A stretch of 64,000 bases of DNA from Candidatus Hydrogenedentales bacterium. GTDB lineage: Bacteria; Hydrogenedentota; Hydrogenedentia; Hydrogenedentales; JAEUWI01. Location: positions 5,208,125-5,272,124 of the forward strand of contig OW818658.1 of assembly GCA_942492815.1 (NCBI GenBank), given 5' to 3'. The notes below the pieces were generated by a model. It was not told the origin of the DNA, did not search any database, and saw only the letters and a program-made list of their open reading frames with translations. The position numbers were made by a program, and so were the translations under genes. Shown in pieces: positions 8,146 to 57,720 of the stretch; position 1 is the first letter of the stretch; every line of letters starts with the position of its first letter.

Positions 8146-8895
8146 ATGAAAAAACTTGAAGGCAAAGTTGCCGTGGTCACTGGCGCATCCAAAGGCATCG
8201 GCGCGGAAATCGCCCGACAACTCGCAGCCGAAGGCGCTTCGGTGGTCGTCAACTACGCCGCCAGCAAGGAAGGCGCGGATCGCGTCGTCACTGGCATCGA
8301 GGCCGCCGGTGGCAAGGCCATCGCCGTGAAAGCCGACGTGTCCAAGCAGGCGGATATCGTCCAACTCTTTGCGGAGGCGAAAACCGCCTTTGGCCGCCTC
8401 GACGTGCTGGTGAACAACGCGGGAATCTTCAAGTTCGCGCCCCTTGGCGACATCACGGCGGAGCACTTTCACGAGCAGTTCAACCTCAATGTGCTCGGCT
8501 TGCTCCTCACGACCCAGGAAGCCGCGAAGCATTTCGGGCCCGAAGGCGGCAGTGTCATCAACACCAGTTCCATTGTCAGCACCTATGCACCGGCTTTTGG
8601 CTCGGTCTACAGCGCGACAAAGGCCGCCGTGGACGCGGTGACCAAGTCCCTCGCCAAGGAACTCGGACCGCGGAATATCCGCGTCAACTCCATCAACCCT
8701 GGCATGGTGGAAACCGAAGGCACCCACACGGCGGGCATCACGGGCAGCGAACAAGAATCGGTCGTGACCTCCCAAACGCCCCTGGGCCGCACCGGACAAC
8801 CCGACGATATCGCACCCGCCGTGGTCTTCTTCGCATCGCAGGATTCTAAGTGGATCACCGGCGAGACACTCTACATTTCAGGTGGCTTTCGGTAG
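8146..8895 (+). CDS. SDR family NAD(P)-dependent oxidoreductase
   Basis: TGASKGIG cofactor motif, NNAG, catalytic YSATKAA; 249 aa. Confidence 0.9.
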   Translation: MKKLEGKVAVVTGASKGIGAEIARQLAAEGASVVVNYAASKEGADRVVTGIEAAGGKAIAVKADVSKQADIVQLFAEAKTAFGRLDVLVNNAGIFKFAPLGDITAEHFHEQFNLNVLGLLLTTQEAAKHFGPEGGSVINTSSIVSTYAPAFGSVYSATKAAVDAVTKSLAKELGPRNIRVNSINPGMVETEGTHTAGITGSEQESVVTSQTPLGRTGQPDDIAPAVVFFASQDSKWITGETLYISGGFR

Positions 8896-9025
8896 GCTGA
8901 AGGCTGAAAATGGATCTTATGCGACCTATGAGTCGTATGGGTCAGTATAATACTGAGACCCCATACGACCCATAAGACCCATTCCCATCACACCCCGACT
9001 ATCGCTCAACAAAAAGGATCCCCAC

Positions 9026-9775
9026 ATGCCCAATTCACTCAGCGGAAAAGTTGCCCTTGTCACCGGTGGATCACGCGGCATCGGCGCGGCCATCGCCCAC
9101 GCCCTTGCGGATCACGGCGCAGACGTAGCCATCAGCTATTCGGCGTCTGCGGAAAAAGCACAAGCCGTCGCGTCGGAGCTCGGCGCGAAGGGCGTCCGCG
9201 CCCACGCCTTCCAGGCGGACCAGGCCGATCAAACCCAAGTCACGGACCTCGTAAAAGCCGTGGCCGATCACTTCGGTCGCCTCGACATCCTCGTCAACAA
9301 CGCGGGCGTCTTCTCCCCCGGGATGATCGGCGCTCCAGACACCGACGTGGCGGGCCTTGATCGCCAGCTCGCCATCAACTACAGCGCCGTGGTCACGGCC
9401 ATCCGCGCCGCCGCGCCGATCATGGGTGAAGGTGGGCGCATCATCACCATCGGATCGGGCCTGGCGGATCGCGTGGCCTTCCCGGGCATTGCCGACTACT
9501 CGGCCACCAAGGCCGCCGTGGTGGGTTATACCCGCGGCGCAGCCCGTGACCTGGGTCCAAAGGGCATCACCGTGAACGTGGTCCAGCCCGGTTCCACCGC
9601 CACAGACATGAATCCGGAAGACGGCCCCGGCTCCGAAGGTCAGAAGGCGCTCATCGCCCTCGGTCGCTATGGCCAGCCTGCGGAAGTCGCTGCCGCCGTG
9701 GCCTTCCTCGCGAGCCCTGCGGCATCGTACATCACGGGAACGGTAATCACGGTGGACGGCGGATTTACAGCGTAG
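9026..9775 (+). CDS. SDR family NAD(P)-dependent oxidoreductase (paralog)
   Basis: [19 protein letters not shown] motifs; 249 aa. Confidence 0.9.
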
Positions 9776-24471: not shown

Positions 24472-24600
24472 GGGGACGTACCGCCGCACTGGCACCCGAC
24501 ACAAGCGAGGTGAATGCTAGGGCCTTCTCCTCAGCCCGGTTAAGCGAGGCCCATACCAAAGCGGCGGCATGTCCCGGTAGATGCTGGAATCGTGACGCGA
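24472..24600. repeat. Family-2 structured repeat, partial solo unit
   Basis: GGGGACGTACCGCCGC ... GCGGCGGCATGTCCCGGTAGATGCTGGAATCGTGACGCG boxes shared with the tandem units at 50337-50855 and 57074-57720. Confidence 0.7.
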
Positions 24601-24620: not shown

Positions 24621-25001
24621 CTCGTTCCCAAGCTCCGCTCTTGTCATTACCCACAAGTTTCGCGAGATAGGTGTCTATTGCTTTAGTCCCGAAGGGACGT
24701 CATATCGTAGCCCAGGGTGGAGCGAGGTACGAGCGAAACCCTGGGTATTATGGAAAAAATTCATTAGCCCCAGCGGGGCGGCATAGAAGAACCGGCAATC
24801 CATCCCTGGTTTTCTGTGTCATCCCTTCTGGATTCAATGTTTTTGGGGTCCGGTGACCCGGGGTTCCGCTCCTACCTCGCTGTACCCTGGGCTACGATAT
24901 GCCGCCACTACGTGGCTAATCAGATGCATTTCTGTGATCTGTTGCAGTGTCCTATGCTTAAGAACATATGGGCAATGACAAGAGCTCCGCTTGGGAACGA
25001 G
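24621..25001. repeat. Family-1 palindromic structured repeat element, copy B
   Basis: Terminal arms CTCGTTCCCAAGCTCCGCTCTTGTCATTACCC / GGGCAATGACAAGAGCTCCGCTTGGGAACGAG are inverted repeats; internal modules near-identical to copy A. Confidence 0.75.
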
Positions 25002-27927: not shown

Positions 27928-28258
27928 GGTGGTACCTCGAAGGGCCGGAAGGCGTTAGCCACGAAGTGGCGGCAGTTTGTAGCCTGGGGTGGAGCGAGGC
28001 ACGAGCGCAACCCCAGGATCACCAAACAAACACATCGAATCCGCGAAGCGGATGCCAGATTGCGATAACCCCGCTCTGCCATCCGCCGCAGGCGGATTCA
28101 ACCAGTGGGGGATTCGGACCTGGGGCTGAAGCCCCAGGCTAATGACTGATGTCCACTTCGTGGACTAAGAAAACGCTCGGAGAACACCGTCCCCTGTGCC
28201 GTCTTTCCCATATTCCTGGTTCACTCGTTCCCAATTCGTAATTCATAATTCATAATTC
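27928..28258. repeat. Family-1-like structured repeat element, tandem unit 1 downstream of hsdS
   Basis: Contains TAGCCACGAAGTGGCGGCA hairpin, CCTGGGGTGGAGCGAGGCACGAGCGCAACCCCAGG hairpin and mirrored GTCCACTTCGTGGAC / CCTGGGGCTGAAGCCCCAGG hairpins. Confidence 0.7.
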
Positions 28259-28353: not shown

Positions 28354-28689
28354 GCGGAAAAGTGGTACCTCGAACGGCCGGAAGGCGTTAGCCACGAAGT
28401 GGCGGCAGTTTGTAGCCTGGGGTGGAGCGAGGCACGAGCGCAACCCCAGGATCACCAAACAAACACATCGAATCCGCGAAGCGGATGGCAGGTCACGAAG
28501 ACCATGCTCTGCCATCCGCTTCGCGGATTCAAAGAGTGGGGCATTCGGACCTGGGGCTGAAGCCCCAGGCTAATGACTGATGTCCACTTCGTGGACTAAG
28601 AAAACGCTCGGAGAACACCTCCCCCTGTACCGTTTTCCCCATATTCCTGGTTCACTCACACCCAATTCGTAATTCATAGTTCATAATTC
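28354..28689. repeat. Family-1-like structured repeat element, tandem unit 2 directly abutting the hsdS stop
   Basis: Near-identical to 27928-28258; includes a 22-bp perfect inverted repeat GAATCCGCGAAGCGGATGGCAG / CTGCCATCCGCTTCGCGGATTC. Confidence 0.7.
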
Positions 28690-30264
28690 TCAATTCGTCA
28701 GCGCGCTGACGCCCGCTTCCAGCAGCGCCACCGCCGTCCGGCGCGACGTCGCGATCTGCGCCTCCAACTGGTCCACTAGCCCCATCAACTCCTCCACCCG
28801 CGCCACGATGCGGCGTTGTTCCGCGAGGGGTGGGAGAGGAAATTGAATTGAACAAATAGTTTTCATGTTCAAAAATGGCTGGACTGCCTCGGATGCAATC
28901 CCACGAAGATACTCGGCTATAGCATTCAAGTAGATGCACAAATACTGGGCCGTAACCACCTCACCTACGCGAAATCTGCACAAACCCGTTGTGGAGAGCA
29001 TCCCCTCCGGCATCGACTCCGGATAGATGGCACAGAGTCCAATGCTTCCGACTTTACCTAAGAGTACATCGTTCGGCAATACGTTGTGCCGCCTCAGCAA
29101 CGCGAACTTTTCCTCTCGAATGTATCGAAGGTCGTTGGGATTAAACCTAAACGGCTTAACATTCACCATTCGAATCACGGGGACACCCGTCTCTATGTAA
29201 TCCGTCTTTATGTTTATAGATTGACCGAAGGGCCCGTCGACAATCGCTGACTCTGAAGCATTCCCTATCTCGCCAATTCTGCACCACGTCCAGGATTCTG
29301 GAAGCGGATGGTTGTGCCCACTCAGGCTAGAATCAGCCAGTGCTCTTGGTTTACGCATCTCCCCTGATTTAATCGCGATTTGTTTAGCGCTTTCCACCCT
29401 CGCGAGGAGCTCCTCCGCCCCTTCATCTGCCGGGTCCTGGGGCACGAGCTTTCCCCGAACGGCGAGGGTGAGGATGGACTTGCGGAGGTCGGCGGGGTCG
29501 ATGGGGCAGGCCGGGTGAAAGAGGAGCTTGAGGTTTTCCGGGGTCGGGTCCTCGTTGAACCGGGACACGCTGGCGCGGGCGAGATCGGCGTGCCGCGCGT
29601 CCCGTTCCCGCTGCTGCGCCTCCAGCCGGTCACACAGGGCCATCAAGGCATCCACCTTCGCCACAATCCGCTTCTGCTCCGCGAGCGGCGGGAGGGGAAT
29701 CTCGAATCGCTCAATCATCCCTTTTGTCAGCGCCTGCCGGGTTGCTCCAACTTGTACATCATCGATCATCACTTGAATCGCCGGACTGGCCAGAAACTTC
29801 GCAAGGAACACCGGGTCCAGATCGGGTGTGGGACGTATTATAGTCACGTGCTGGTTCACCCGCGCGCCCACCATCTCCACTGGCGCCGTCGTGACTCGGC
29901 CAATCGACGCACCTGTGATATTGAGGAGAACGTCATCCGCCTGCACGATCACATTCGAGAGCTTATCTGCTTGTTCGCTCGTCAAGAACACAAGGCCGAG
30001 AGGTTCGAAACCGCGAAAGTGAACGTTCATCGAACGAATGAGCGGAATCCCTTGAGTCACGTAAGAGACCCGGCCTCCCGACGGTGTTGCACCACTGCCG
30101 ATCTTGGAAGCCAACGACTTGAGAGTCACCAAAGGCCAGGGCTCGCCAACCGGCAACAGTTTTCCCGAGAAGGCAAGGTGAAGCACCAGTTCCCGCATCT
30201 TGTCCACAGCCCTGGGCGCGTCGGCGAACAGCTCAAAGTTCTCAAAAAAAGTGTCGAGGTTCAT
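28690..30264 (-). CDS. hsdS: Type I restriction-modification specificity subunit HsdS (two target-recognition domains)
   Basis: Central and C-terminal conserved repeats LPPLAEQKRIVAKVDALM... and LPPLAEQRRIVARVEELM...; ATG at 30264 preferred (ORF track start 30297). Confidence 0.9.
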   Translation of the reverse strand: MNLDTFFENFELFADAPRAVDKMRELVLHLAFSGKLLPVGEPWPLVTLKSLASKIGSGATPSGGRVSYVTQGIPLIRSMNVHFRGFEPLGLVFLTSEQADKLSNVIVQADDVLLNITGASIGRVTTAPVEMVGARVNQHVTIIRPTPDLDPVFLAKFLASPAIQVMIDDVQVGATRQALTKGMIERFEIPLPPLAEQKRIVAKVDALMALCDRLEAQQRERDARHADLARASVSRFNEDPTPENLKLLFHPACPIDPADLRKSILTLAVRGKLVPQDPADEGAEELLARVESAKQIAIKSGEMRKPRALADSSLSGHNHPLPESWTWCRIGEIGNASESAIVDGPFGQSINIKTDYIETGVPVIRMVNVKPFRFNPNDLRYIREEKFALLRRHNVLPNDVLLGKVGSIGLCAIYPESMPEGMLSTTGLCRFRVGEVVTAQYLCIYLNAIAEYLRGIASEAVQPFLNMKTICSIQFPLPPLAEQRRIVARVEELMGLVDQLEAQIATSRRTAVALLEAGVSALTN

Positions 30265-30676
30265 TGTACCCCCAGGGACTGACGCGCGCAGGCGCACTTG
30301 TCGCGAGCGGCACAGACCAGGCGGTCAATCGGCGATGGTGAAAGCGGCAGGCACGCCCATGCGCGTGGCTGTCCCGTCGTGAGGGAGATGCACGCGATAC
30401 TCAAAGACAGGCCCGGTCCGCGACACGCCCCCTGAATACGGGCGTCGCGCGTGCGTCGAGGGCGCTCGGGCCACGACGGGACAGCCACGGACGTTGAAAT
30501 ACCTGTTGCTCGTAAACGACCCCCGTCAATCCATGGTGCCTTTGCTACCGGAATACACCGGTCCGCGTCAGTCCCTGTGAGACTGCCCTTCACACCATCG
30601 CAGGCCCCTCGCAGGCAAGTCGCATCGGCGACTGACGCGACGCCACGGGCACGGGAAAGCCAACCGGAGCGGCCAG

Positions 30677-30865
30677 ACAAAGGAGCTTGGACATTCCTGT
30701 CCGAGACAAAGCCTGCGTTACAAATTGACAGGCCCGCTGGCATGTGCGAAACCTCCGCTATCAAAAATCGGGACTTTGGCACGCCTGGCTTTACAGACAA
30801 CTTCACAGGGCCCTTCGGTGTTGGCGCAGGCGCTGTCTCGGACAGGAATGTCCAAGCTCCTTTGT
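30677..30865. mobile_element. MITE-like element, 189 bp with 32-bp perfect terminal inverted repeats
   Basis: ACAAAGGAGCTTGGACATTCCTGTCCGAGACA at 30677-30708 and exact reverse complement at 30834-30865; related solo motif at 27845-27872; no ORF inside. Confidence 0.65.
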
Positions 30866-30913
30866 ACCGCGTATCGAAGCTGCGCGTAATACTCCCCGAA
30901 AACGAGTAGCCTC

Positions 30914-32350
30914 TCATCGCGTCAGCGCCTCCATCAATTGCGCCTTCAATGCTTCCCGGGTCTCGGCGATCTGCGCCAGGAGCTTTTCGTATTCCGGCAG
31001 GAGTTCGTCCACGTTGCCGGGGCCGGTGTCGGTGCTGTGGGGGTTCTTCAGGTCGAGGTTGTAGTTGCCCGCCTGGATGGCCGCCACGGAGACGCGCCAG
31101 GCCTGCTCGTTTTCCACGCGCTTCTTCCACCACTTTTTCTCGGGCGCGAATTCCTCAATGCGGATGGGCTTGGTCTTGTTGTAGCTCTTGGCGCCGGGGG
31201 GATAGGGGTGCTCGTAGTACCAGACCTCCTTCGTGGGCTTGCCCGCGTCGAAAAAGAGCAGATTGGTGCGGATGCCGGTGTAGGGGCTGAAGACGCCGTT
31301 GGGCAGGCGCACGATCGTGTGGAGGTTGAACTCGGTCAGGAGCCGCTCCTTGATGCGGGTCTTCACGCCTTCGCCGAAGAGGGTGCCGTCGGGCAACACG
31401 AGCCCCGCGCGGCCGCCAGGCTTGAGCAGCTTCATCAGCAGCACGAGGAAGAGATCGGCTGTTTCTCGCGTGCGGAATTCCGTCGGGAAGTTGGCCTCGA
31501 TCCCGTCTTCCTCCATGCCGCCGAAGGGCGGGTTGGTGACGATGACGTCCACGCGCTCGGTGGCCTTCCAGTCGCGCAGTGGCCGGGCGAGGGTGTTGTC
31601 GTGGCGCACGTTGGCGGGCACGTCGATGCCGTGGAGCATGAGGTTGGTCATGCAGAGGACATGGGGCAGGTGCTTCTTCTCGATGCCGTGGAAGCAGTCC
31701 TGGATCGCGCGCTCGTCGGCCTCGGTTTTGGCCTGCTTGCGCAGGTGCTCGATGGCGCAGGTGAGGAAGCCGCCGGTGCCGCAGGCGGGATCGAGGAGGG
31801 TCTCTCCGAGGCGCGGGTTGACCTGCTCCACGATGAACTGGGTGACGGCCCGGGGCGTGTAGAACTCGCCCGCGTTGCCCGCGGACTGGAGGTCTTTCAG
31901 AATGCGCTCGTAGATGTCGCCGAACATATGGCGGTCGTCGGAGGCGTTGAAATCGATGCCATTGATCTTGTTGATCACCTGGCGCATGAGGGTGCCGTTT
32001 TTCATGTAGTTGTTGGCGTCTTCAAAGCTCATGCGGATGAGCCCGGCAATCTTGTCCTGGCCGCCGGTGAGGGCCTTGAGCTTGGGCAGGAGCGTGTTGT
32101 TCACAAAATCGAGGAGGGCCTCGCCCGTGATGCCTTCCTCGTCCTTCGCCCAGTGGCTCCAGCGCAGGTGCGGGGGCAGGGGCGACTTGTAGTGGTCGCG
32201 GATGAGTTCGAGTTCCTGCTCGCGGTCATCGAATATTTTCAGGAAGAACATCCAACCGAGCTGCTCCAGGCGCTGGGCGTCGCCATAGGTGCCGGCGTCC
32301 TTGCGCATGATGTCCTGGATGGATTTTACGATATTGGAAACGTTGGACAT
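30914..32350 (-). CDS. hsdM: Type I restriction-modification DNA methyltransferase subunit HsdM
   Basis: N6-adenine methyltransferase motifs (TNPPFG, LDPACGTGGFL); 478 aa. Confidence 0.95.
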   Translation of the reverse strand: MSNVSNIVKSIQDIMRKDAGTYGDAQRLEQLGWMFFLKIFDDREQELELIRDHYKSPLPPHLRWSHWAKDEEGITGEALLDFVNNTLLPKLKALTGGQDKIAGLIRMSFEDANNYMKNGTLMRQVINKINGIDFNASDDRHMFGDIYERILKDLQSAGNAGEFYTPRAVTQFIVEQVNPRLGETLLDPACGTGGFLTCAIEHLRKQAKTEADERAIQDCFHGIEKKHLPHVLCMTNLMLHGIDVPANVRHDNTLARPLRDWKATERVDVIVTNPPFGGMEEDGIEANFPTEFRTRETADLFLVLLMKLLKPGGRAGLVLPDGTLFGEGVKTRIKERLLTEFNLHTIVRLPNGVFSPYTGIRTNLLFFDAGKPTKEVWYYEHPYPPGAKSYNKTKPIRIEEFAPEKKWWKKRVENEQAWRVSVAAIQAGNYNLDLKNPHSTDTGPGNVDELLPEYEKLLAQIAETREALKAQLMEALTR

Positions 32351-32394
32351 GGATTGGGCTTGCTTCTACGTGCGCGATTGCACGGGTGAGTTTA

Positions 32395-32467
32395 CAGGGA
32401 CGGCAGGGACATCAGGGACAACAGGAAGAGAGTATTCTGCCGTCCCTGATGTCGCTGCTGTCCCTGT
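32395..32467. promoter_or_regulatory. Imperfect inverted repeat with GGGAC heptad repeats between hsdR stop and hsdM start
   Basis: CAGGGACGGCAGGGACATCAGGGACAACAGG ... CTGCCGTCCCTGATGTCGCTGCTGTCCCTG in the 143-nt hsdR-hsdM spacer. Confidence 0.45.
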
Positions 32468-32493
32468 GAATGAGGGCGGATAATCCGCACATT

Positions 32494-34860
32494 TTACGCC
32501 ACCCTCCGGTACAGCTCGGCTTCGAGGGCCTGGATCGCCTCCAGGTACTGTTCCTTGCCGCCGAAGAGTTTCACGATCTCCGTGACGGTGCCGAATTGGG
32601 TCAGCGGAGCCACTTTCAATATTTCCAGGGACTCCACGCTCTGGATGCCGCCGTCGGCGAACTTGTCCAGCAGCGCGTCGAGCACGGCGCGCACCTCCGC
32701 GCCGTATTTCGCGAAGACGTGGCGCTTGCGCACGTTCTCCGCGCGCTCGCGCCGGGTGAGGGGCGGCTCGTCGAAGGCCACGTGGCAAATGAGGTCGAAG
32801 GCGTCGTAGTCGCGGCCCACCTGCTCGGCGAGTTCGTCCAGGAAGACGCCCTTGCCCGCGAGCTCTTCGAGGATGGCCTGCTTCCGCTCGGCATCGCTCC
32901 AAACGGTGAGAAATTCCGTCAGCGTGGCGAAGGACTTTTGCACGGTGCGGCGGCTGTAGTCGCGGAGGGATTCGGTGATGAGCTTGCCGTCGGCGTCGAG
33001 GTATTGCACGCGCTCGGTGACGATCTTTACTTCCACGTTGTCCACGTAGTACTTCTTCGGCCGTCCGCTGTCGCCCTCACCGTCGAGGGGCCAGGGCTCA
33101 CCGTCAATGTACACCTCGCCCTCTTCCTGAGCGTTCGTCGAACTTTCGTCCGGCGGCACCACGGAATCGTCGGGCCCGGGTACATAGATCTGCACCGGAT
33201 CGCCGTCGAAATCCGGATCGGCGAAGAGGGCCGTGGCGCGCTTGAAATCCATGATAGTGAAATAGAGCTTGCCGTAGTCCTCGCGGATGCGGGTGCCGCG
33301 ACCGATGATCTGCTTGAACTCGGTCATGGAGGCGATGCGCTTGTCGAGGACAATGAGGTGGCAGGTCTGGGCGTCAACGCCGGTGGACATGAGCTGGGAG
33401 GTGGTGGCGATGACCGGATAGTCCCGGCTGGGATCGATGAAATTGTCGAGCTGGGCCTTGCCCTCGGGGCTGTCGCCGGTGATGCGCATGACGTATTTGT
33501 CGTTGGCGGCGGCGAGGTCGGGGTTGGCGTTGACCAGGGCCTGGCGCATCCGCTCGGCGTGATCGATGTCGTCGCAGAAGACTATCGTCTTGGCGAAGCG
33601 GTTGGTGGCGTAGAGGAACTCGGTGATTTTCGCGGCCACGAGGGCGGTGCGCTTTTCGAGGACGAGGTTGCGATCAAAGTCGAGGATATTGTACTCGCGA
33701 TCTTCGATTTCGTGGCCGTATTTGTCGGTCTGGCCGCGCTCGGGCCGCCAGCCGTCGAGGTCTTTGTCGATGCCGACGCGGACCACCTTGTAGGGCGCGA
33801 GGAAGCCGTCGGCGATGCCTTGCTTGAGGGAGTAGGTGTAAATGGGTTCGCCGAAGTACTCGATGTTCGACACGTCGCGCGTTTCTTTGGGCGTTGCGGT
33901 GAGGCCGATCTGGGTGGCGGAGCTGAAGTACTCCAGGATCTGCCGCCAGTTGGCGTCGTCGGCCGCGCTGCCGCGATGGCACTCGTCGATCACGATGAGA
34001 TCGAAGAAGTCGGGCGAAAACTGTTTGTAGATGTTCTGATCTTCCTCGGTGCCGCTGACGGCCTGGTAGAGGGCGAGGTAGATCTCGAAGGCCTTGTCCG
34101 CCGTGCGGTTCGTGATCTTGGTCATGGCCTTGCCGAAGGGCTTGAAGTCGTTGCTCTTGGTCTGGTCGGCGAGGATGTTGCGATCGACGAGAAAGAGGAT
34201 GCGTCTGCGCGCCCCGGCCTTCCACAGCCGCCAGATGATCTGGAAGGCGGTGTAGGTCTTGCCAGTGCCGGTGGCCATAACGAGGAGGATGCGCTTCTCG
34301 CCGCGCGCGATGGCGTCCACGGTGCGGTTGATGGCGACGAGCTGGTAGTAGCGCGGGGCGCGGTCGGAGCCGTCGTCGTAGTAATCCTGGGTGGTCACGG
34401 CTTCCTGCGCGTCGGTGTAGCCTTTGGCCTGGCGATAGCGGGCCCAGAGTTCTTCGGGCGTGGGGAATTGATCGAGGGGGATCTCGCGCTCGACTGTGCC
34501 TCCGGTGCCAGTGCGGTCGTGCTCCAGAAAGGTGTCGCCGTTGGAGCTGTAAGCAAAGGGCACGTCGAGGATCTCGGCATACTCGAGCGCCTGCTGCATG
34601 CCCGCGCCCACAGCGTGGTTATTGTCCTTGGCCTCGACGACGGCAATGGGCATGTTGGGCTTGTAGAAAAGGAGGTAATCGGCTTTTTTCGCCTCGCCCC
34701 GCGACACGGACTTGCCCCGGACGATCACGCGCCCCTTGGTGAAGTGATACTCTTCGAGCATCTGGGTCATCACGTCCCACTTCGATCCGCCGGGTCCGAG
34801 GATCGCCGGCGTGATGAACTTGGTGCGGATGTCGGTCTCTGTCAGTGCCTTTTTGTCCAC
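32494..34860 (-). CDS. hsdR: Type I restriction enzyme endonuclease/helicase subunit HsdR
   Basis: 788 aa; N-terminal nuclease region, SF2 helicase motifs (ATGTGKT Walker A, DECHR); canonical HsdR N-terminus. Confidence 0.95.
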
Positions 34861-34953
34861 GTGTGCCCCTGTGTGCCTGTTTTGTATGAATCCCGCCCGG
34901 GCTCGGTGGGGCTATTGTACATGGCACCGGGCCGAAGTGGGAAGCGGGGCGGG

Positions 34954-35967
34954 CTATTTCGCCTTTTCCTCGATCCGCTTTGCTTCCCGCTCCAGTTCAG
35001 CCATTTCGTCGCTGGCGGCCTCTTCATCCAGTCTTCGCCGGTTGAACTTTTCGTACTCCCCTTCCGCGCGGGATTTTGCGAGGTCTGCGCTGATGGTGCC
35101 CGCGTTCTCCAGAACTTCCCGCCCGTTGAACTGGAGGAAGGCATTGAGCTTCCCCTCCCAATCGGCCATGTGCATGGGCTGCTTTCGCTCCGCCTGGTCT
35201 TCGGCGTAGTCGAGGTACATCGTTACGATTCGGTTGAGTCCACGCACTTCCTCCTCGGTGAGGTAGTTTTTCGCGATGGCCACGTCGCCCTTCCGAACTT
35301 TTGCGCCTTTCCAGGTGGTCAGGCCCATGTTGGGCTGGGTGGCGTCCACGCGTTCCACGATCAGCTCGGCAGCCGTGTGGCCGTGGGTCGCCCAGTGAAG
35401 TTTGTTCTGCACTGCCTTGAAGAAATGTCGGGCCTGTTCGGAGTTGGGTTCATAGTCCACAGCGAGGGCGTAGATATCCTGAATCTTCCGGTAGAAGCGT
35501 TTCTCCGAAGCGCGGATATCACGGATCCGCTCCAGGAGTTCGTCATAGTAGTCCGCGCCGAGATTGCGGCCCTCCTTGAGCCGCTCGTCGTCCATGGCGA
35601 AGCCCTTGACGAGGTATTCCCGGAGCCGCTCCGTGGCCCAGCGACGAAACTGGGTGCCCCGGTGGGAGCGAACGCGATATCCGACGGCGATGATCACGTC
35701 GAGGTTGTAGTGTTTGATTGCCCGCTGGACTTCCCGCGCGCCCTCGGATTGAACTGTCAAGTATTCCTTGACAGTTGCCCCTTCGTCGAGTTCGCCTTCC
35801 TCGTAAATATTTCGAATATGGAGACTTATGTTCTGCTTGCTGCTATGAAACAAGTCTACCAATTGCGCCTGGCTGAGCCAGACGGTCTCGTCTTCCAAGC
35901 GCACGTCGATGCGCGTCTTCCCGCCCTCGGGCTGGTATATGAGGATTTCCGATTGTGGTTCCGGCAT
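34954..35967 (-). CDS. rhuM: RhuM family protein (uncharacterised, frequently linked to Type I R-M loci)
   Basis: N-terminal region ...IYQPEGGKTRIDVRLEDETVWLSQAQLVDLFHSSKQNISLHIRNIYEEGEL typical of RhuM; directly upstream of hsdR on the same strand. Confidence 0.8.
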   Translation of the reverse strand: MPEPQSEILIYQPEGGKTRIDVRLEDETVWLSQAQLVDLFHSSKQNISLHIRNIYEEGELDEGATVKEYLTVQSEGAREVQRAIKHYNLDVIIAVGYRVRSHRGTQFRRWATERLREYLVKGFAMDDERLKEGRNLGADYYDELLERIRDIRASEKRFYRKIQDIYALAVDYEPNSEQARHFFKAVQNKLHWATHGHTAAELIVERVDATQPNMGLTTWKGAKVRKGDVAIAKNYLTEEEVRGLNRIVTMYLDYAEDQAERKQPMHMADWEGKLNAFLQFNGREVLENAGTISADLAKSRAEGEYEKFNRRRLDEEAASDEMAELEREAKRIEEKAK

Positions 35968-47216: not shown

Positions 47217-47810
47217 TCAGCGTCGGGGCCCGCGCTCCGGCTCCCGCTTGTTCTCCACCCCGCTTTCGGCGGGCTCACCCGCGGCGCGACGATGCATCCC
47301 CCGCTGCAACCACTCGCAGCGCTCCTCCAGGGCATTAATCCCCACGAGGATGGCCACGGCGATGACGGCCAGCTTGACGCCGAGGAAGGGGGACCCCGTG
47401 CCTATGACCACACCGATGGCGGCCAGCACCCAGATGCTCGCGGCGGAGGTTGCCCCCACGACCATGCCATCCCGGTTCAGCATGACCCCGGCCCCGAGAA
47501 AACCGATGCCCGTGATCACCTGCCCGATGACACGCGTGGGGTCGGTAGTGGGGTTAACCACGACAAGTCCGATGGCGACGAAGATATACGTACCCACAAC
47601 GATAAGCACGCTGGTGCGGATGCCGATGGGTTTTCCCTGCCATTGGCGCTCCAGACCGATGATGCCCCCGGAGATAAGGCAGGCGAAGAGGGCAATCCAC
47701 GAGAGCGGATCGACGGAGATCCAGGGGCTGTCACCCCAGGCATAGAGGCGGAGATACAGGGATTCCAAAATGCGGTTCACCTCTCGCGGTAACGCCACGG
47801 TGTCGGGCAC
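47217..47810 (-). CDS. mgtC: MgtC/SapB family membrane protein
   Basis: 197 aa; MgtC-type N-terminal TM core (...GGIIGLERQWQGKPIGIRT...). Confidence 0.8.
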   Translation of the reverse strand: MPDTVALPREVNRILESLYLRLYAWGDSPWISVDPLSWIALFACLISGGIIGLERQWQGKPIGIRTSVLIVVGTYIFVAIGLVVVNPTTDPTRVIGQVITGIGFLGAGVMLNRDGMVVGATSAASIWVLAAIGVVIGTGSPFLGVKLAVIAVAILVGINALEERCEWLQRGMHRRAAGEPAESGVENKREPERGPRR

Positions 47811-47965
47811 CCGTGCAACAGTTCGCCGGGCGACTTCACTATAGCAGGTTTCTCAGGCAGACGGGTCGGGCGGGCCCGCTCAAAAAAAATGCCTTGGGAC
47901 TTGTTATTGCTTTTCTTACCCATGTATTGTATGCGCGATCACCCCGATCAATCAGGAGACCGAAG

Positions 47966-48163
47966 ATGAACGCTGAAGGACGCCGAACTACCAATCGCAC
48001 GTCCCGGCTGACGCGGGAAGTGCTGCTAAGCCTGCTGGACCGTCATACGTCTGGCTGCTTGCCGTCTCCCCACCAGCGCCGCACACTCTCAGCAGAGTCG
48101 TGCAAGCGCGGTGCGCTTCAGCCGAAAAAGCAACGTCTACGGAATCCTGAATGGAACGCTTAG
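47966..48163 (+). CDS. Hypothetical small basic protein (65 aa)
   Basis: ATG at 47966 preceded by AGGAGA 6 nt upstream; Arg/Lys-rich; no recognisable family. Confidence 0.3.
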   Translation: MNAEGRRTTNRTSRLTREVLLSLLDRHTSGCLPSPHQRRTLSAESCKRGALQPKKQRLRNPEWNA

Positions 48164-48743
48164 CTTCACATAACCTCGATAACACTCCCGGCCTGGCCGA
48201 CTGGGGCGCACATTTGCGCCCGTCGGCGCTTCGGGGGCTATTCGGGCCGTCGCTCGCGGGAAGCAATTCCCCCTCGCAGGACGGCCTTTCCCTTTGCCCG
48301 GAGGCCCTTCCCGCCGCCTCGAACAATAATAATCTCCGCAAGGGTGAATATTGTTCGGCCCAAATGGGTAATAGCATCCCCGGGTGTATAGAGCCGGTCC
48401 CCGGCGGGAATGCTCCCGGCCAGGCCGGTCGCGTGACCCTTCAGAATAAGCAACCCCGAAAATGTTGCATTCGGCGCACACAGTTGAATACAATGGCTGG
48501 TTTTCCGGAATACCCTTGTGCATCATCCCTGCGCATGTTCTCCGGCAATCGCGCGCTCCCGCGAGGGCATCGCGCCAGCCATCAATACCATCTCGCAGGC
48601 TTGGGCTCTGCACCGCGCATATTAAATGACAAGGCCGTAAGTGTGTTCTTGCCATTTTTTACCCTAGGTTGCCGTGACTAGAAACCCGGCTAACTCTTGC
48701 GATTTACCGCAGTGCTGCGGTATTCGAAAGGAGGATTTATACG

Positions 48744-49190
48744 TTGGCTAAAGGAAGACACCTTCTCATCGATTGTGTGAATGTGCCCCGGGAAGTCTGT
48801 GGCGACGACAAGCTGGTATTGAAGGCGATGGCATCGGCCGCGGAACGCGCCGGTGCAACCGTCATCTCCCAGGTTCGCTACCATTTTGGGCACAATTCCG
48901 CACCTGGCTTCACCGCCATGGTCCTGTTGGACGAGAGCCATTGTTCCGCGCATGCGTATTCGGACGAAGGCCTGCTCGCCTTGGATATCTTTACCTGCGG
49001 GGACACCGACCCCCGGGATGTATTGGCGTACATGCAGGAGATGCTCGATCTGGGCGATATTACCGTGCAGCATTGCGAACGGTTCCATACGCCCGGCGAG
49101 CGCTTTAGAGCGCCTGAGATTGCTGTCTCCCTGAAGTCCTTCCGTACCGAGGCATTCGAACTCGCGACGAGCGGGAACGGGCATGGATAA
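48744..49190 (+). CDS. speH: S-adenosylmethionine decarboxylase proenzyme, small bacterial type (SpeH)
   Basis: Self-processing site context LLDESHCSAHAY; TTG start with AGGAGG about 10 nt upstream. Confidence 0.85.
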   Translation: MAKGRHLLIDCVNVPREVCGDDKLVLKAMASAAERAGATVISQVRYHFGHNSAPGFTAMVLLDESHCSAHAYSDEGLLALDIFTCGDTDPRDVLAYMQEMLDLGDITVQHCERFHTPGERFRAPEIAVSLKSFRTEAFELATSGNGHG

Positions 49191-50277
49191 CCGCTGTTTC
49201 CACAGCGGTTCCGCAGACGGACTGAAACCTCTCTTAAGTCTTGACCTGGACCAGATCCACACCTTTAAGGGTCTGGTCCAGGCGATGTCTCACACGGCCT
49301 TCGGCGGACGAAGGCTGGGCGAGGCACTGGAAACGCTGACGGAAATGGTGCAGACGCCGGGATGCTTCAAAGTCATGAGCATCTCTGGCGCCATGACCGT
49401 GGCAAAACAGGGCAAGATCGTTTCAGACCTGATCGACCGCGGCGTCATTGACGCAGTCGTGGCCACCGGTGCGCTGGTGACCCACGGCCTGACGGAATCC
49501 TTCGGCAACACCCACTACGCGGTGCCCCATGACGCGACGGACGAGGAGCTTTTCGACCAGGGCTACAATCGGATTTACGATACCCTGGAGATGGAAGCGA
49601 ACCTCAACGATCTGGCGGAAATCATCGCCGGCATCATGGACAAGCAGGACGCGAACACCGCGTGGTGTTCCAGCGCCATCTGTCGCGCCATCGGCGAAGA
49701 GCTGGACAAGCGCGACGAAGGACCCGGAATTCTCCGGAGCGCCTACCGCCGTGGCGTGCCCGTGTATATCCCCGCCTTTACCGATAGCGAGATGGGACTT
49801 GACCTCTCCACTTGGGCCATGGCGCGAAGCCTGAAGCCCGGCGCGGCCCCCGAGGCGTGCCTCGACACCGTCCCGAATTTTAATCCCTTCCTCGATTTGC
49901 AGGATTATGCCAAGCGCGCCATCGGCGCCTCGACGCTGGGCATTTTCACCATCGGCGGCGGCGTGCCGCGCAACTGGGCTCAGCAAGTGGGCCCCTACGC
50001 CGACATCACCGCGCGGCGCCTTGGCATCACCCTGCCCGAGATCAAATTCAAGTATGCGGTGCGCATCTGCCCCGAGCCCGACCACTGGGGCGGCCTTTCC
50101 GGCTGCACCTACAGCGAAGGTGTGAGCTGGGGCAAGTTCGTGCCCCGCTCCGAAGGCGGCAAACACGCCGAAGTCCACGCGGACGCCACGACGGTCTTCC
50201 CCCTGCTGGCCAAGGCCCTCTTCGAGACGCTGGAAACGGGCGATGCCCCGAAGGTCTGTCCGAAGTCGGGCAAGTAA
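49183..50277 (+). CDS. Deoxyhypusine synthase-like protein (DHS family; possible homospermidine-synthase-type enzyme)
   Basis: 364 aa DHS-family architecture; 8-nt overlap with speH. Confidence 0.8.
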   Translation: MDNRCFHSGSADGLKPLLSLDLDQIHTFKGLVQAMSHTAFGGRRLGEALETLTEMVQTPGCFKVMSISGAMTVAKQGKIVSDLIDRGVIDAVVATGALVTHGLTESFGNTHYAVPHDATDEELFDQGYNRIYDTLEMEANLNDLAEIIAGIMDKQDANTAWCSSAICRAIGEELDKRDEGPGILRSAYRRGVPVYIPAFTDSEMGLDLSTWAMARSLKPGAAPEACLDTVPNFNPFLDLQDYAKRAIGASTLGIFTIGGGVPRNWAQQVGPYADITARRLGITLPEIKFKYAVRICPEPDHWGGLSGCTYSEGVSWGKFVPRSEGGKHAEVHADATTVFPLLAKALFETLETGDAPKVCPKSGK

Positions 50278-50291
50278 GCACGTAAATCTGA

Positions 50292-50331
50292 ATCGCCGCG
50301 CTCCACGATGCTGGAGCGCGGCGATTTTTTG
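50292..50331 (+). terminator. Rho-independent terminator after the speH / DHS-like operon
   Basis: ATCGCCGCGCTCCA-cgatgc-TGGAGCGCGGCGAT followed by TTTTTTGT. Confidence 0.8.
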
Positions 50332-50336
50332 TCTGA

Positions 50337-50855
50337 GGGGACGTACCGCCGCAAATAAACCCCGTAAAGGGCACACCGCCCTACGCCCTATGAGTCCATT
50401 CAACCGAGGGACGTTCACGCCAACGCGGCGGCATGTCCCTGGGGATGCTGGAATCACGACGCGGAATAAATCCAGGGCGCTCCATTACATCCGCCGGGAC
50501 GGGCACGCGCGCTGCCAGGAGCATCGCAAATAACAGTCATAGGAATGCGTGGAGTGACCCGCGCCCACACAAGTCGCGGGCGCGAGTCCGTCCCAGGGGA
50601 CGTACCGCCGACAATATTCCCCGTGAAGGGCACACCACCCTGCGCGCTCTGGATCCATTCAACCGAGGAACGTTCACACCAAGGCGGCATGTCCCTGGGG
50701 ATACTGGAATCGTGACGCGGAATAATCCAAGACCCTCCATTACGTCCACCGGGACGGGCACGCGCGTTGCCGGGAGCGTCGCACATAACCGTCATAGGAA
50801 TGTGCGGAGTGACCCGCGCCCGCGCCCGCAGCCGTCGCGGGCGCGAGTCCGTCCC
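50337..50855. repeat. Family-2 structured repeat, two tandem units (~258 + 261 bp)
   Basis: Units about 85% identical; each has a 5' GGGGACGTACCGCC box, a central GGCGGCATGTCCCTGGGGAT(G/A)CTGGAATC(A/G)TGACGCGG box and a 3' GGGACGGGCACGCGCG...CGCGGGCGCGAGTCCGTCCC box. Confidence 0.8.
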
Positions 50856-50856
50856 T

Positions 50857-51699
50857 TTACGCGCCCCACTTCTCGCGGATCATCTTCAGGCCGTTCGTGG
50901 CGAGGTACTCTTCGCTCGGAGCCATGACGCGCCAGATGCAGGTGGCACCGGCAAGATCGGGGATCCAGGAGCCAAAGGCTTCGATTACCATCCAGCCGTC
51001 GTAGCCGATTTCCTTGAGTGCCGCGAAGCAGGTGTCGTAGTCGATGTGGTCGTCGCCGGGTGTCGCACGGTCGTTCGCGGAGATATGCACGTGGTTGATG
51101 CAGTTGCCACCGGCGCGGATCGCCTCGGCGAAATTCTTCTCTTCGATGTTGGCGTGGAAGGTGTCGAACATCTCCCCCACCGCTTCGATGCCAACGGCGC
51201 GCACAAGATTCGCGGAATCCGCCTGGGTGTTGAGGAAATACGTCTCGAAGCGGTTCAAGGGCTCGATGGCGAGTTTGATGCCTTTCTCCGTGGCGTGGGC
51301 ACCCACTTCACGGAAGCCTTGGATCGCGCGATCCATTTCATCAGGCACGGGGCCGCGTCCGATGAGCCGACCCACCGGGCTGTACAGGGGGCCGCAGAGG
51401 GCCTCGGCGCCCAGCACCACACAAGCGTCTATGCAGGCTTTGAGATGGACGACAGCCGCCTTGCGCTCGCCTTCGTCTTCACCGATCAGGTTCGTGCCGG
51501 CGGGCAACACCGTCACCGCCGTCCGGCCCAGGCCCAGCGCGTCGCACTTGGCGGCCAGCTTAGCCCAGGGGGATCCATCGGCCGAAAACATGGGAAACTC
51601 CACGCCGTCGAAGCCCCAGCCTTTGATCTGTTCCAGCAGGGGCAGGTGGCTCTCGTCCGCGCCACCGGTCCACAGCAACAAGTTCATCCCGACTTTCAT
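50857..51699 (-). CDS. Sugar phosphate isomerase/epimerase (xylose-isomerase-like TIM barrel)
   Basis: 280 aa; TIM-barrel family pattern (...AIEPLNRFETYFLNT..., ...HVHISANDR...). Confidence 0.85.
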   Translation of the reverse strand: MKVGMNLLLWTGGADESHLPLLEQIKGWGFDGVEFPMFSADGSPWAKLAAKCDALGLGRTAVTVLPAGTNLIGEDEGERKAAVVHLKACIDACVVLGAEALCGPLYSPVGRLIGRGPVPDEMDRAIQGFREVGAHATEKGIKLAIEPLNRFETYFLNTQADSANLVRAVGIEAVGEMFDTFHANIEEKNFAEAIRAGGNCINHVHISANDRATPGDDHIDYDTCFAALKEIGYDGWMVIEAFGSWIPDLAGATCIWRVMAPSEEYLATNGLKMIREKWGA

Positions 51700-57065: not shown

Positions 57066-57073
57066 GGGTACCA

Positions 57074-57720
57074 GGGGACGTACCGCCGCAAAGGCACTTG
57101 GGCAGACGCGGTAAACACGAATCGTCATTGCCACTCGATAGGGACAAAGCCCGCTCTGGTGCGGCGGCATGTCCCGGTGGATGTTGCAACGTGACGTGAA
57201 CACTTCGCGAAGCTTTCGGTAATGGACCCGGTGGATGAAGCCCGACTGGATCCACAAAAACGGTGATGTGGAGCGTTCGCGTGTACTCCACACTTCCACT
57301 GGGACAGGCACGCGCGTTGTCGTAAACTTTGCTCGTATTCGTCATCCTGAATAATCAATATGAACCACGCCCGCAGTAGTCGTGGGCGCGAGTCCGTCCC
57401 CGGGGACGTACCGCCGCAAAGGCACTTGGGCAGACGCGGTAAACACGAATCGCCATGCACACTCGATTTTGACAAAGCACGCTCTGGTGCGGCGGCATGT
57501 CCCTGTGGATGTAGAATCATGACGTGAACGCAACATGTAGTCAACTTGCGGAGAACGCTCGACCGGATTCGCAAAATCGGCGATCTGGAGCGTTCACGCG
57601 CCTTTCGCACATCCACTGGGACGGGCACGCGCGTTGTAAGGTACTTTGCCCACATTCGTCATCCTGAATACTTCAATGTGCACCCCGCTCGCAGTAGTCG
57701 TGGGCGCGAGTCCGTCCCCC
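57074..57720. repeat. Family-2 structured repeat, two tandem units (~328 + 319 bp)
   Basis: Both units start GGGGACGTACCGCCGCAAAGGCACTTGGGCAGACGCGGTAAACACGAATCG and end CGCAGTAGTCGTGGGCGCGAGTCCGTCCCC; shared boxes with 50337-50855. Confidence 0.8.

Follow-up and report, generated by a model that had tools for sequence, protein, structure and literature searches.

What do two overlapping genes make when the first encodes the fold of an S-adenosylmethionine decarboxylase (AdoMetDC) and the second that of a deoxyhypusine synthase (DHS)? The question is raised by positions 48744-50277 of a 64,000-nucleotide stretch of DNA from a Candidatus Hydrogenedentales bacterium (contig OW818658.1 of assembly GCA_942492815.1), which we refer to as the window. 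Annotation pipelines will name the two open reading frames (ORFs), here called ORF A and ORF B, 'adenosylmethionine decarboxylase' and 'deoxyhypusine synthase family protein', implying spermidine synthesis or hypusination. We consider it likely that the pair is instead a speDA-speY operon supplying the enzymes for the two opening steps of the agmatine-dependent ('diagmatine') pathway that leads to homospermidine. The main value of the analysis is this corrected annotation, which leads from arginine through agmatine and diagmatine to homospermidine. The anatomy of the locus, the folds of the two proteins, their conserved catalytic residues and diagnostic motifs, and the synteny of the pair were established directly.

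In the proposed pathway, the ORF A proenzyme would cleave itself between Glu64 and Ser65, turning Ser65 into the pyruvoyl cofactor, and the mature SpeDA, an AdoMetDC fold repurposed, would convert L-arginine into agmatine. SpeY, the product of ORF B, would then use bound NAD and Lys318 to oxidise one agmatine, holding its 4-guanidinobutyl group as an enzyme imine, and would pass this group to a second agmatine to yield N1,N9-bis(guanidino)homospermidine (G44G, also called diagmatine or caldomycin). Finally, homospermidine would be freed by a hydrolase encoded outside the window, which may be either an arginase-family G44G ureohydrolase or a G44G iminohydrolase acting together with an amidohydrolase. 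Both genes would be read as one transcript ending at one terminator. We infer what the two enzymes consume and produce from gene context and from homologs that have been characterised; the third step and the translational coupling described below are also inferred. The features of the operon are listed here; locus names with the letter L refer to the speY loci that we compared across genomes, namely the best 80 from GTDB species representatives and 85 in all with further loci such as L085.

48730-48734, + strand: Shine-Dalgarno (SD) sequence GGAGG of speDA, read from the sequence and scored by duplex energy, the same in L082 and L001.
48744-49190, + strand: speDA (ORF A), a class 1b AdoMetDC-fold proenzyme of 148 aa, predicted pyruvoyl-dependent L-arginine decarboxylase (PF02675 match and residues).
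48936-48938, + strand: codon of Ser65 in the LLDE-SH motif, predicted self-cleavage site and pyruvoyl precursor, aligned with T. maritima Ser63.
49183-49190, + strand: overlap of the two genes, with the speY start codon inside the final speDA codons (ATGGATAA).
49183-50277, + strand: speY (ORF B), a DHS-fold protein of 364 aa, predicted NAD-dependent agmatine-coupling 'diagmatine' (G44G/caldomycin) synthase (PF01916 match and motifs).
50134-50136, + strand: codon of Lys318 in SWGK, predicted catalytic lysine forming the enzyme-imine intermediate, aligned with human Lys329.
50290-50333, + strand: intrinsic terminator closing the two-gene operon (stem, loop and T-run).

ORF A matches the Pfam family AdoMet_dc (PF02675) with 87 bits. 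When aligned to the AdoMetDC of T. maritima (PDB 1TLU), its Ser65, His70 and Cys85 fall on S63, H68 and C83 of that enzyme, and all three residues are invariant among 234 homologs of ORF A, as is the run D63-E64-S65-H66. The proline of the T. maritima motif HTWPE is replaced by Ser73 in the same alignment. At this position, the 234 family members carry Ala (230), Ser (2) or Gly (2), and none of them carries Pro. The homologs are typically 131-136 aa long and cover ~77-81% of the query, the C-terminal tail of ~30 aa in ORF A being specific to its lineage and missing outside close relatives. Two cultured Planctomycetaceae, Rubinisphaera margarita and Symmachiella dynata, encode members of the same SpeD family with ~69-70% identity to ORF A.

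Many SpeD homologs of prokaryotes are not AdoMetDCs; they are pyruvoyl-dependent decarboxylases of L-arginine (SpeDA) or L-ornithine (SpeDC) (Li et al. 2023, JBC, PMC10407285). Bona fide AdoMetDCs all have the proline of the motif H-x-W-P-E, which is not conserved in SpeDA (Fig. 8 of PMC10407285), while SpeDC is marked by four diagnostic residues (Gln, Thr, Phe and Tyr) around the processing site (PMC10407285). The SpeDC signature Q..ETS..GHF..Y.D.FSC, as given in the published alignment of fusion proteins, is not present in ORF A, which reads MVLLDESHCSAHAYSDEGLLALDIFTCG in this region. Because the proline is lost and the family is clustered with speY plus either agmatinase or aguB/aguA, ORF A fits SpeDA and not AdoMetDC, and we conclude that it is probably a neofunctionalised pyruvoyl L-arginine decarboxylase. 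Phage SpeD homologs, considered as functional anchors, were all at most 37% identical and hence uninformative. A sequence search of the PDB confirmed the folds and found no solved structure of a SpeDA or a SpeY.

ORF B matches the Pfam family DS (PF01916) with 249 bits. We compared it with the CdmS, cyanobacterial SpeY, DHS and homospermidine synthase (HSS) sequences in the supplement of Kobayashi et al. 2024 (PMC10981699), and found 35% identity (157 bits) to CdmS of T. thermophilus, 28% (85 bits) to the cyanobacterial CsSpeY and 23% (67-72 bits, with 71 for the human enzyme) to human DHS, Arabidopsis DHS and Senecio HSS. Lys318, within SWGK, aligns with Lys329 of human DHS and with the corresponding lysine of CdmS (Lys299 in the numbering of PMC10981699). 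Phe204 and Leu286 of CdmS have been picked out as pocket residues that differ from Asp243 and Asp316 of human DHS (PMC10981699). In a MAFFT alignment, ORF B places Leu206 and Leu305 at these two positions, and both leucines are invariant, together with Lys318, in an alignment of 21 relatives of ORF B. The motifs RIYDT, GGLSG and GGGVPRNWAQ are common to ORF B, CdmS and SpeY only, where DHS has RIGNL and GSDSG; RIYDT and GGLSG are missing from the DHS and plant HSS sequences compared.

The activity of such enzymes has been described: SpeY proteins from diverse phyla, in every case tested, make G44G from agmatine, with spermidine not being needed (Li et al. 2026, PMC13625781; PMC10981699), and human and plant DHS yield no G44G (PMC13625781). 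Two of the tested SpeY enzymes stem from speDA-speB-speY clusters, and homospermidine arises only once a hydrolase of the agmatinase type or of the agmatine iminohydrolase (AIH) type acts on G44G (PMC13625781). By its motifs and pocket residues, ORF B is predicted to be an agmatine-coupling G44G synthase of the SpeY/CdmS type.

The comparison of speY loci provided the gene context. In 20 of the best 80 loci, the gene immediately 5' of speY, on the same strand, codes for a SpeD homolog of the ORF A family; most of these pairs are separated by a gap of 9-30 nt, and some have a short overlap. The 20 species belong to the Hydrogenedentota, Latescibacterota, Planctomycetaceae and Nitrospirales or are unclassified metagenome-assembled genomes (MAGs), and the pairing exceeds chance. 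In 11 speDA-speY loci, L085 counted in, speY is followed by genes for agmatinase or aguB-aguA. An arginase-family gene takes this place in six of them (L004, L009, L015, L016, L018 and L036), that of L009 (Hydrogenedentes UBA2224) clearing the cut-off of the agmatinase model TIGR01230 (205 vs 174.3 bits), and aguB (CN_hydrolase) with aguA (PAD_porph) takes it in five Planctomycetaceae loci (L085, L006, L007, L014 and L064). The surroundings of speY, out to ~10 kb in each of the 85 loci, contain neither speE nor efp/IF5A. In 33 Nitrospirota loci, speY genes of the same clade (53-56% identical) lie 3.5-4.5 kb from a gene for a pyruvoyl arginine decarboxylase (PvlArgDC, PF01862), and 21 of these loci also have an arginase-family gene alongside. 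The closest named relative of ORF B, with 85% identity, comes from the 'Candidatus Hydrogenedentes bacterium' MAG GCA_019637335.1, where the two genes are paired as well.

Two details of these loci were recorded alongside. The Nitrospirota cluster (33 loci within L037-L080, ~+1 to +5.5 kb from speY) comprises speY, a DsbA-like thioredoxin, an aldehyde dehydrogenase and the PF01862 gene, the aldehyde dehydrogenase being an unexplained member of this homospermidine cluster. In L085, on a 7.7-Mb planctomycete contig, the aguA gene for agmatine/G44G iminohydrolase (8613-9652) is split over two frames, as either an assembly frameshift or a pseudogene would produce.

We also scanned 40 coding-like ORFs from the whole 64-kb window against Pfam and found among them no gene for spermidine synthase, agmatinase, AIH (aguA), N-carbamoylputrescine amidohydrolase (NCPAH, aguB), carboxyspermidine dehydrogenase or decarboxylase (CASDH/CASDC) or HSS. 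Among the same ORFs there was no other arginine or ornithine decarboxylase (ADC, ODC) and no elongation factor P (EF-P) or IF5A. A tblastn search of the window with E. coli SpeE and EF-P, both query sequences being approximate, gave nothing significant. These results bear on an earlier sequence-only reading of the locus, which had named the first gene speH and had let the second enzyme transfer aminobutyl groups from spermidine. Both assignments are probably wrong: the AdoMetDC proline is lost and the family clusters with speY and agmatinase or aguB/aguA, and the tested bacterial SpeYs couple two agmatines (PMC10981699, PMC13625781). Its broader idea of a two-gene polyamine module directed toward homospermidine, and not toward hypusination, has stood, given the SpeY-type motifs and the lack of an IF5A/EF-P gene. 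It was also right in seeing no speE in the window. The carboxyspermidine-pathway genes that it proposed to look for are not among the 40 ORFs, and the nearby eIF5A-like substrate that it held would speak for hypusination was searched for and not found in the window.

We then considered how the two genes are arranged and expressed. ORF A starts with TTG and ORF B with ATG, and the 8 nt common to the end of one and the start of the other were confirmed as first read. The overlap is also present in relatives with another stop codon, as ATGGATGA in L082 and ATGACTGA in L001. The TTG start, the SD sequence and the 8-nt overlap are all retained in L082, L083 and L084 (SpeY identity 95%) and in L001 (85%), the SD and TTG context being identical in L082 and L001. 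Because close relatives keep these elements although their stop codon differs, the speDA-speY arrangement is maintained and is no accident of ORF calling. The GGAGG of speDA lies 9 nt 5' of its TTG and forms a duplex of -11.9 kcal/mol with the anti-SD sequence; the stretch 5' of the speY ATG pairs weakly with it (-5.4 kcal/mol). Translation of speY thus seems to be coupled to that of speDA, as suggested by the overlap of 8 nt together with the weak SD pairing ahead of speY.

The terminator seen behind the pair was likewise borne out. First placed at 50290-50327, it has a stem of 16 bp with 10 G-C pairs, a loop of 6 nt and a T-run, and in a separate analysis its arms appeared as 15 nt with 100% complementarity; the stem is kept in L082, where the loop differs. 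A scan for sigma-70 promoters 5' of speDA in the window gave no site, and a promoter-like site of L082 falls in sequence that the window has lost. When 47700-50900 was compared with Rfam to look for riboswitches or leaders, the sole hit was a chance match to a snoRNA model (E=0.21).

Several points weigh against assigning the pair to the diagmatine route. There is no gene for a G44G-hydrolysing enzyme within the 64-kb window. According to the authors who described SpeDA, nothing but the proline consistently tells it apart from SpeD, and it evolved on several occasions (PMC10407285). ORF A moreover clears the cut-off of the NCBIfam model TIGR03330, 'adenosylmethionine decarboxylase' (85.1 bits, cut-off 75.65). 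Its putative orthology to a proven ADC is based on the proline marker, on Planctomycetaceae family membership and on synteny, not on a tree, and the Hydrogenedentota members of the ORF A and ORF B subfamilies are known from sequence alone. For ORF B, the mapping of Asp243 depends on the alignment, HMMER placing a gap there where MAFFT and the published alignment have none. In addition, the protein scores below every NCBIfam equivalog cut-off. Its best scores are those against models named 'deoxyhypusine synthase', all far under cut-off, and against the equivalog built for CdmS it reaches 174 bits with a cut-off of 500.

The pass on TIGR03330 weighs little, because the SpeD homolog of L085 (6001-6501), which belongs to a speY-aguB-aguA cluster, clears this model as well; TIGR03330 cannot separate AdoMetDC from SpeDA activity. 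The NCBIfam equivalogs were set aside as a classifier of ORF B, the proteins of L085 and L058 from the same clade likewise lying under all cut-offs. As to orthology with a characterised enzyme of different function, which the sequence-only reading had named as telling against itself, ORF A comes close to such a relationship through its marker, family and synteny, although not all the way.

The alternatives have to be weighed against this background. If ORF A were a true AdoMetDC, its product, or spermidine from elsewhere, would feed a DHS-like homospermidine synthase moving an aminobutyl group from spermidine to putrescine. Besides the TIGR03330 pass, ORF A has kept all processing residues, eukaryotic DHS and plant HSS do take spermidine as donor (PMC13625781), and with a view of 64 kb speE could lie elsewhere. 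We nevertheless find this scheme unlikely, since the AdoMetDC proline is missing in ORF A and all of its 234 relatives, speE is near none of the 85 loci while agmatinase or aguAB follows speY in 11, and characterised SpeD homologs adjoining speY are without AdoMetDC activity (PMC10407285). The SpeY pocket, moreover, has Leu/Leu for Asp243/Asp316 as does the agmatine-using CdmS, and bacterial SpeYs give homospermidine in a spermidine-free E. coli delta-speD strain (PMC13625781). It is extremely improbable that ORF B is a true deoxyhypusine-type modifier of EF-P or of another protein and that ORF A provides its amine donor. The DHS fold, the catalytic lysine and the names of the top NCBIfam models would suit such a role, but the scores against those models are all far under their cut-offs, efp/IF5A was found neither in the window nor in any related locus, and ORF B shows the motifs of SpeY in place of those of DHS and Leu/Leu in place of Asp243/Asp316. 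The SpeY clade also co-localises with arginine decarboxylases and agmatinases, and the bacterial SpeYs tested act on small molecules (PMC13625781).

Two genes would be enough if ORF A were a pyruvoyl ODC (SpeDC) making putrescine and ORF B joined two putrescines straight to homospermidine. Such a route, which has no need of a ureohydrolase, would suit the lack of a hydrolase gene after speY in the window, and SpeDC enzymes do exist and cluster with polyamine genes (PMC10407285). It is very unlikely all the same: ORF A has LLDESHCSAHAYSD...LALDIFTCG where proven SpeDC domains have Q..ETS..GHF...Y.D.FSC, the SpeDC genes described so far have HSS, CASDH/CASDC or SpeD/SpeE as partners and not speY (PMC10407285), all tested SpeYs require agmatine, the SpeY and HSS routes being reported as mutually exclusive (PMC13625781), and the orthologous pairs elsewhere go on to carry agmatinase or aguB/aguA. 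With the same enzymes as in the diagmatine route, the pathway might also end at G44G or at a further modified guanidino-polyamine and not at homospermidine. No gene for a diagmatine ureohydrolase or iminohydrolase (DUH/DIH) is linked to the pair here or in L001 and L082, a methyltransferase-ATP-grasp fusion gene lies directly upstream of speDA on the same strand in L001 and L082, in L082 with no terminator in between, and G44G, as caldomycin, is a natural compound in T. thermophilus (PMC10981699). Against this, the hydrolase genes of Gimesia maris simply lie elsewhere in its genome (PMC10407285) and the view here is of 64 kb; the fusion gene, being lost from the window and unlinked to speDA-speY beyond close relatives, is not a required partner. 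We hold an ending at G44G or a modified form to be improbable. There is a slight chance that the operon in this particular lineage gives a methylated or amino-acid-ligated G44G derivative, or stops at G44G; if so, bacteria would have in G44G or its derivative a polyamine end product that is new for them.

The diagmatine route that we favour has several characterised counterparts. In G. maris, Capsulimonas, Ca. Marinimicrobia, Solirubrobacter and archaea, the SpeD homologs beside speY decarboxylate arginine and show no activity as AdoMetDC, ODC or lysine decarboxylase (LDC) (PMC10407285). In G. maris, the SpeDA protein WP_081459519 is a proven L-arginine decarboxylase, and speDA is found directly upstream of speY, with aguA/aguB elsewhere (PMC10407285). 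The module in the window has the speDA-speY arrangement known from the literature and resembles that of G. maris most, a likeness judged from gene arrangement and Planctomycetaceae family members, not from the WP_081459519 sequence. In both, the SpeD homolog lies immediately 5' of speY, the cluster holds no hydrolase, and speE is not its partner; the two differ in phylum, and the window pair has its 8-nt overlap and the C-terminal tail of SpeDA.

Clusters of the speDA-speB-speY type are known from Capsulimonas corticalis, Ca. Marinimicrobia, Solirubrobacter and DPANN/MGII archaea (PMC10407285), and the SpeY proteins of C. corticalis and Ca. Sericytochromatia have been shown to make G44G (PMC13625781). 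As in those clusters, an AdoMetDC-derived pyruvoyl ADC would feed a DHS-homolog agmatine-coupling enzyme in the window, but they hold the ureohydrolase inside, whereas speY is the last gene before the terminator in the window. ORF B resembles CdmS of T. thermophilus in its catalytic Lys, in the hydrophobic residues at human Asp243/Asp316, and in RIYDT and GGLSG. The Thermus system, which includes a SpeB-type ureohydrolase, differs in that its ADC is of the SpeA type, with a pyridoxal phosphate (PLP)-dependent alanine-racemase fold, while the candidate in the window is a SpeD homolog (PMC10981699).

With canonical SpeD/SpeH (1TLU), ORF A shares the class 1b fold, the self-processing site between Glu and Ser, and the same His and Cys. 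It departs from the canonical SpeD/SpeH and SpeE system in having Ser for Pro, speY and not speE as its partner, and arginine and not AdoMet as its predicted substrate. The DHS enzymes that modify eIF5A/aIF5A and plant HSS have in common with ORF B the Rossmann-type DHS fold, NAD dependence and the SWGK lysine. Unlike DHS, to which it is 23% identical, ORF B has no IF5A/EF-P gene nearby and a predicted donor that is agmatine, where DHS uses spermidine.

Taken this way, the locus extends the agmatine-dependent homospermidine route to the Hydrogenedentota. The SpeD family of the ORF A type also occurs in speY operons of Latescibacterota, Planctomycetaceae and Nitrospirales, with ureohydrolase or iminohydrolase endings, and operons with either ending fit the modular horizontal spread proposed in the literature. 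Because TIGR03330 is passed by SpeD homologs without the proline in speY/aguAB clusters, the family lacking this residue is probably misnamed systematically in public annotation. The pathway was already described in 2023-2026; the present example is new by its phylum and opens no new question.

The sequence upstream of the operon differs between the window and its relatives. In L082 and L001, a 65-aa ORF and the methyltransferase-ATP-grasp fusion gene (643-669 aa, UbiE-like and D-Ala-D-Ala-ligase-like) lie 5' of speDA on the same strand, and in L082 no terminator separates the fusion gene from speDA. Farther upstream, these relatives carry a two-component system that is lost from the window. 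When we compared 47811-48743 of the window with 4554-9561 of L082, only the last 24 codons of the ~2-kb fusion gene were found to be retained, at 48551-48622, and 48179-48550 had no match in any locus compared. We considered the fusion gene as a conserved pathway partner and rejected it, as it is neither in the window nor in any other speDA-speY locus. The 65-aa ORF, rich in Arg and Lys, persists at 47966-48163 (+), with 72% identity to its counterpart in L082 and 44% to that in L001; the C-terminal sequence KKQRxRNPEWN is common to all three, and the ORF had no Pfam or NCBIfam match.

The other neighbours of the operon in the window are unrelated to it and include MgtC, a giant FGE-sulfatase/InlB-repeat protein, a xylose-isomerase-like TIM-barrel protein, and PSCyt/DUF1553 and DUF1501 proteins. 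The interval from the terminator of speY to the next, convergent gene contains a unit of ~257 bp in two tandem copies (83-93% identical, 50331-50850). It is not found at the same spot in L082, and the related copies at 57073-57713 and 24556-24599, which are fragments of it, are both intergenic, so that the unit looks like a dispersed intergenic repeat.

Finally, the Acido-Lenti-1 small RNA model of Rfam matched at 24685-24745 (-), 28119-28166 (+) and 28550-28597 (+), with 49.3, 40.3 and 40.3 bits against a gathering threshold of 37. Two of these matches are intergenic and lie just before a type I restriction-modification locus, which comprises a complete system (HsdS, HsdM and HsdR) and a RhuM-family gene at 28690-35967 (-).

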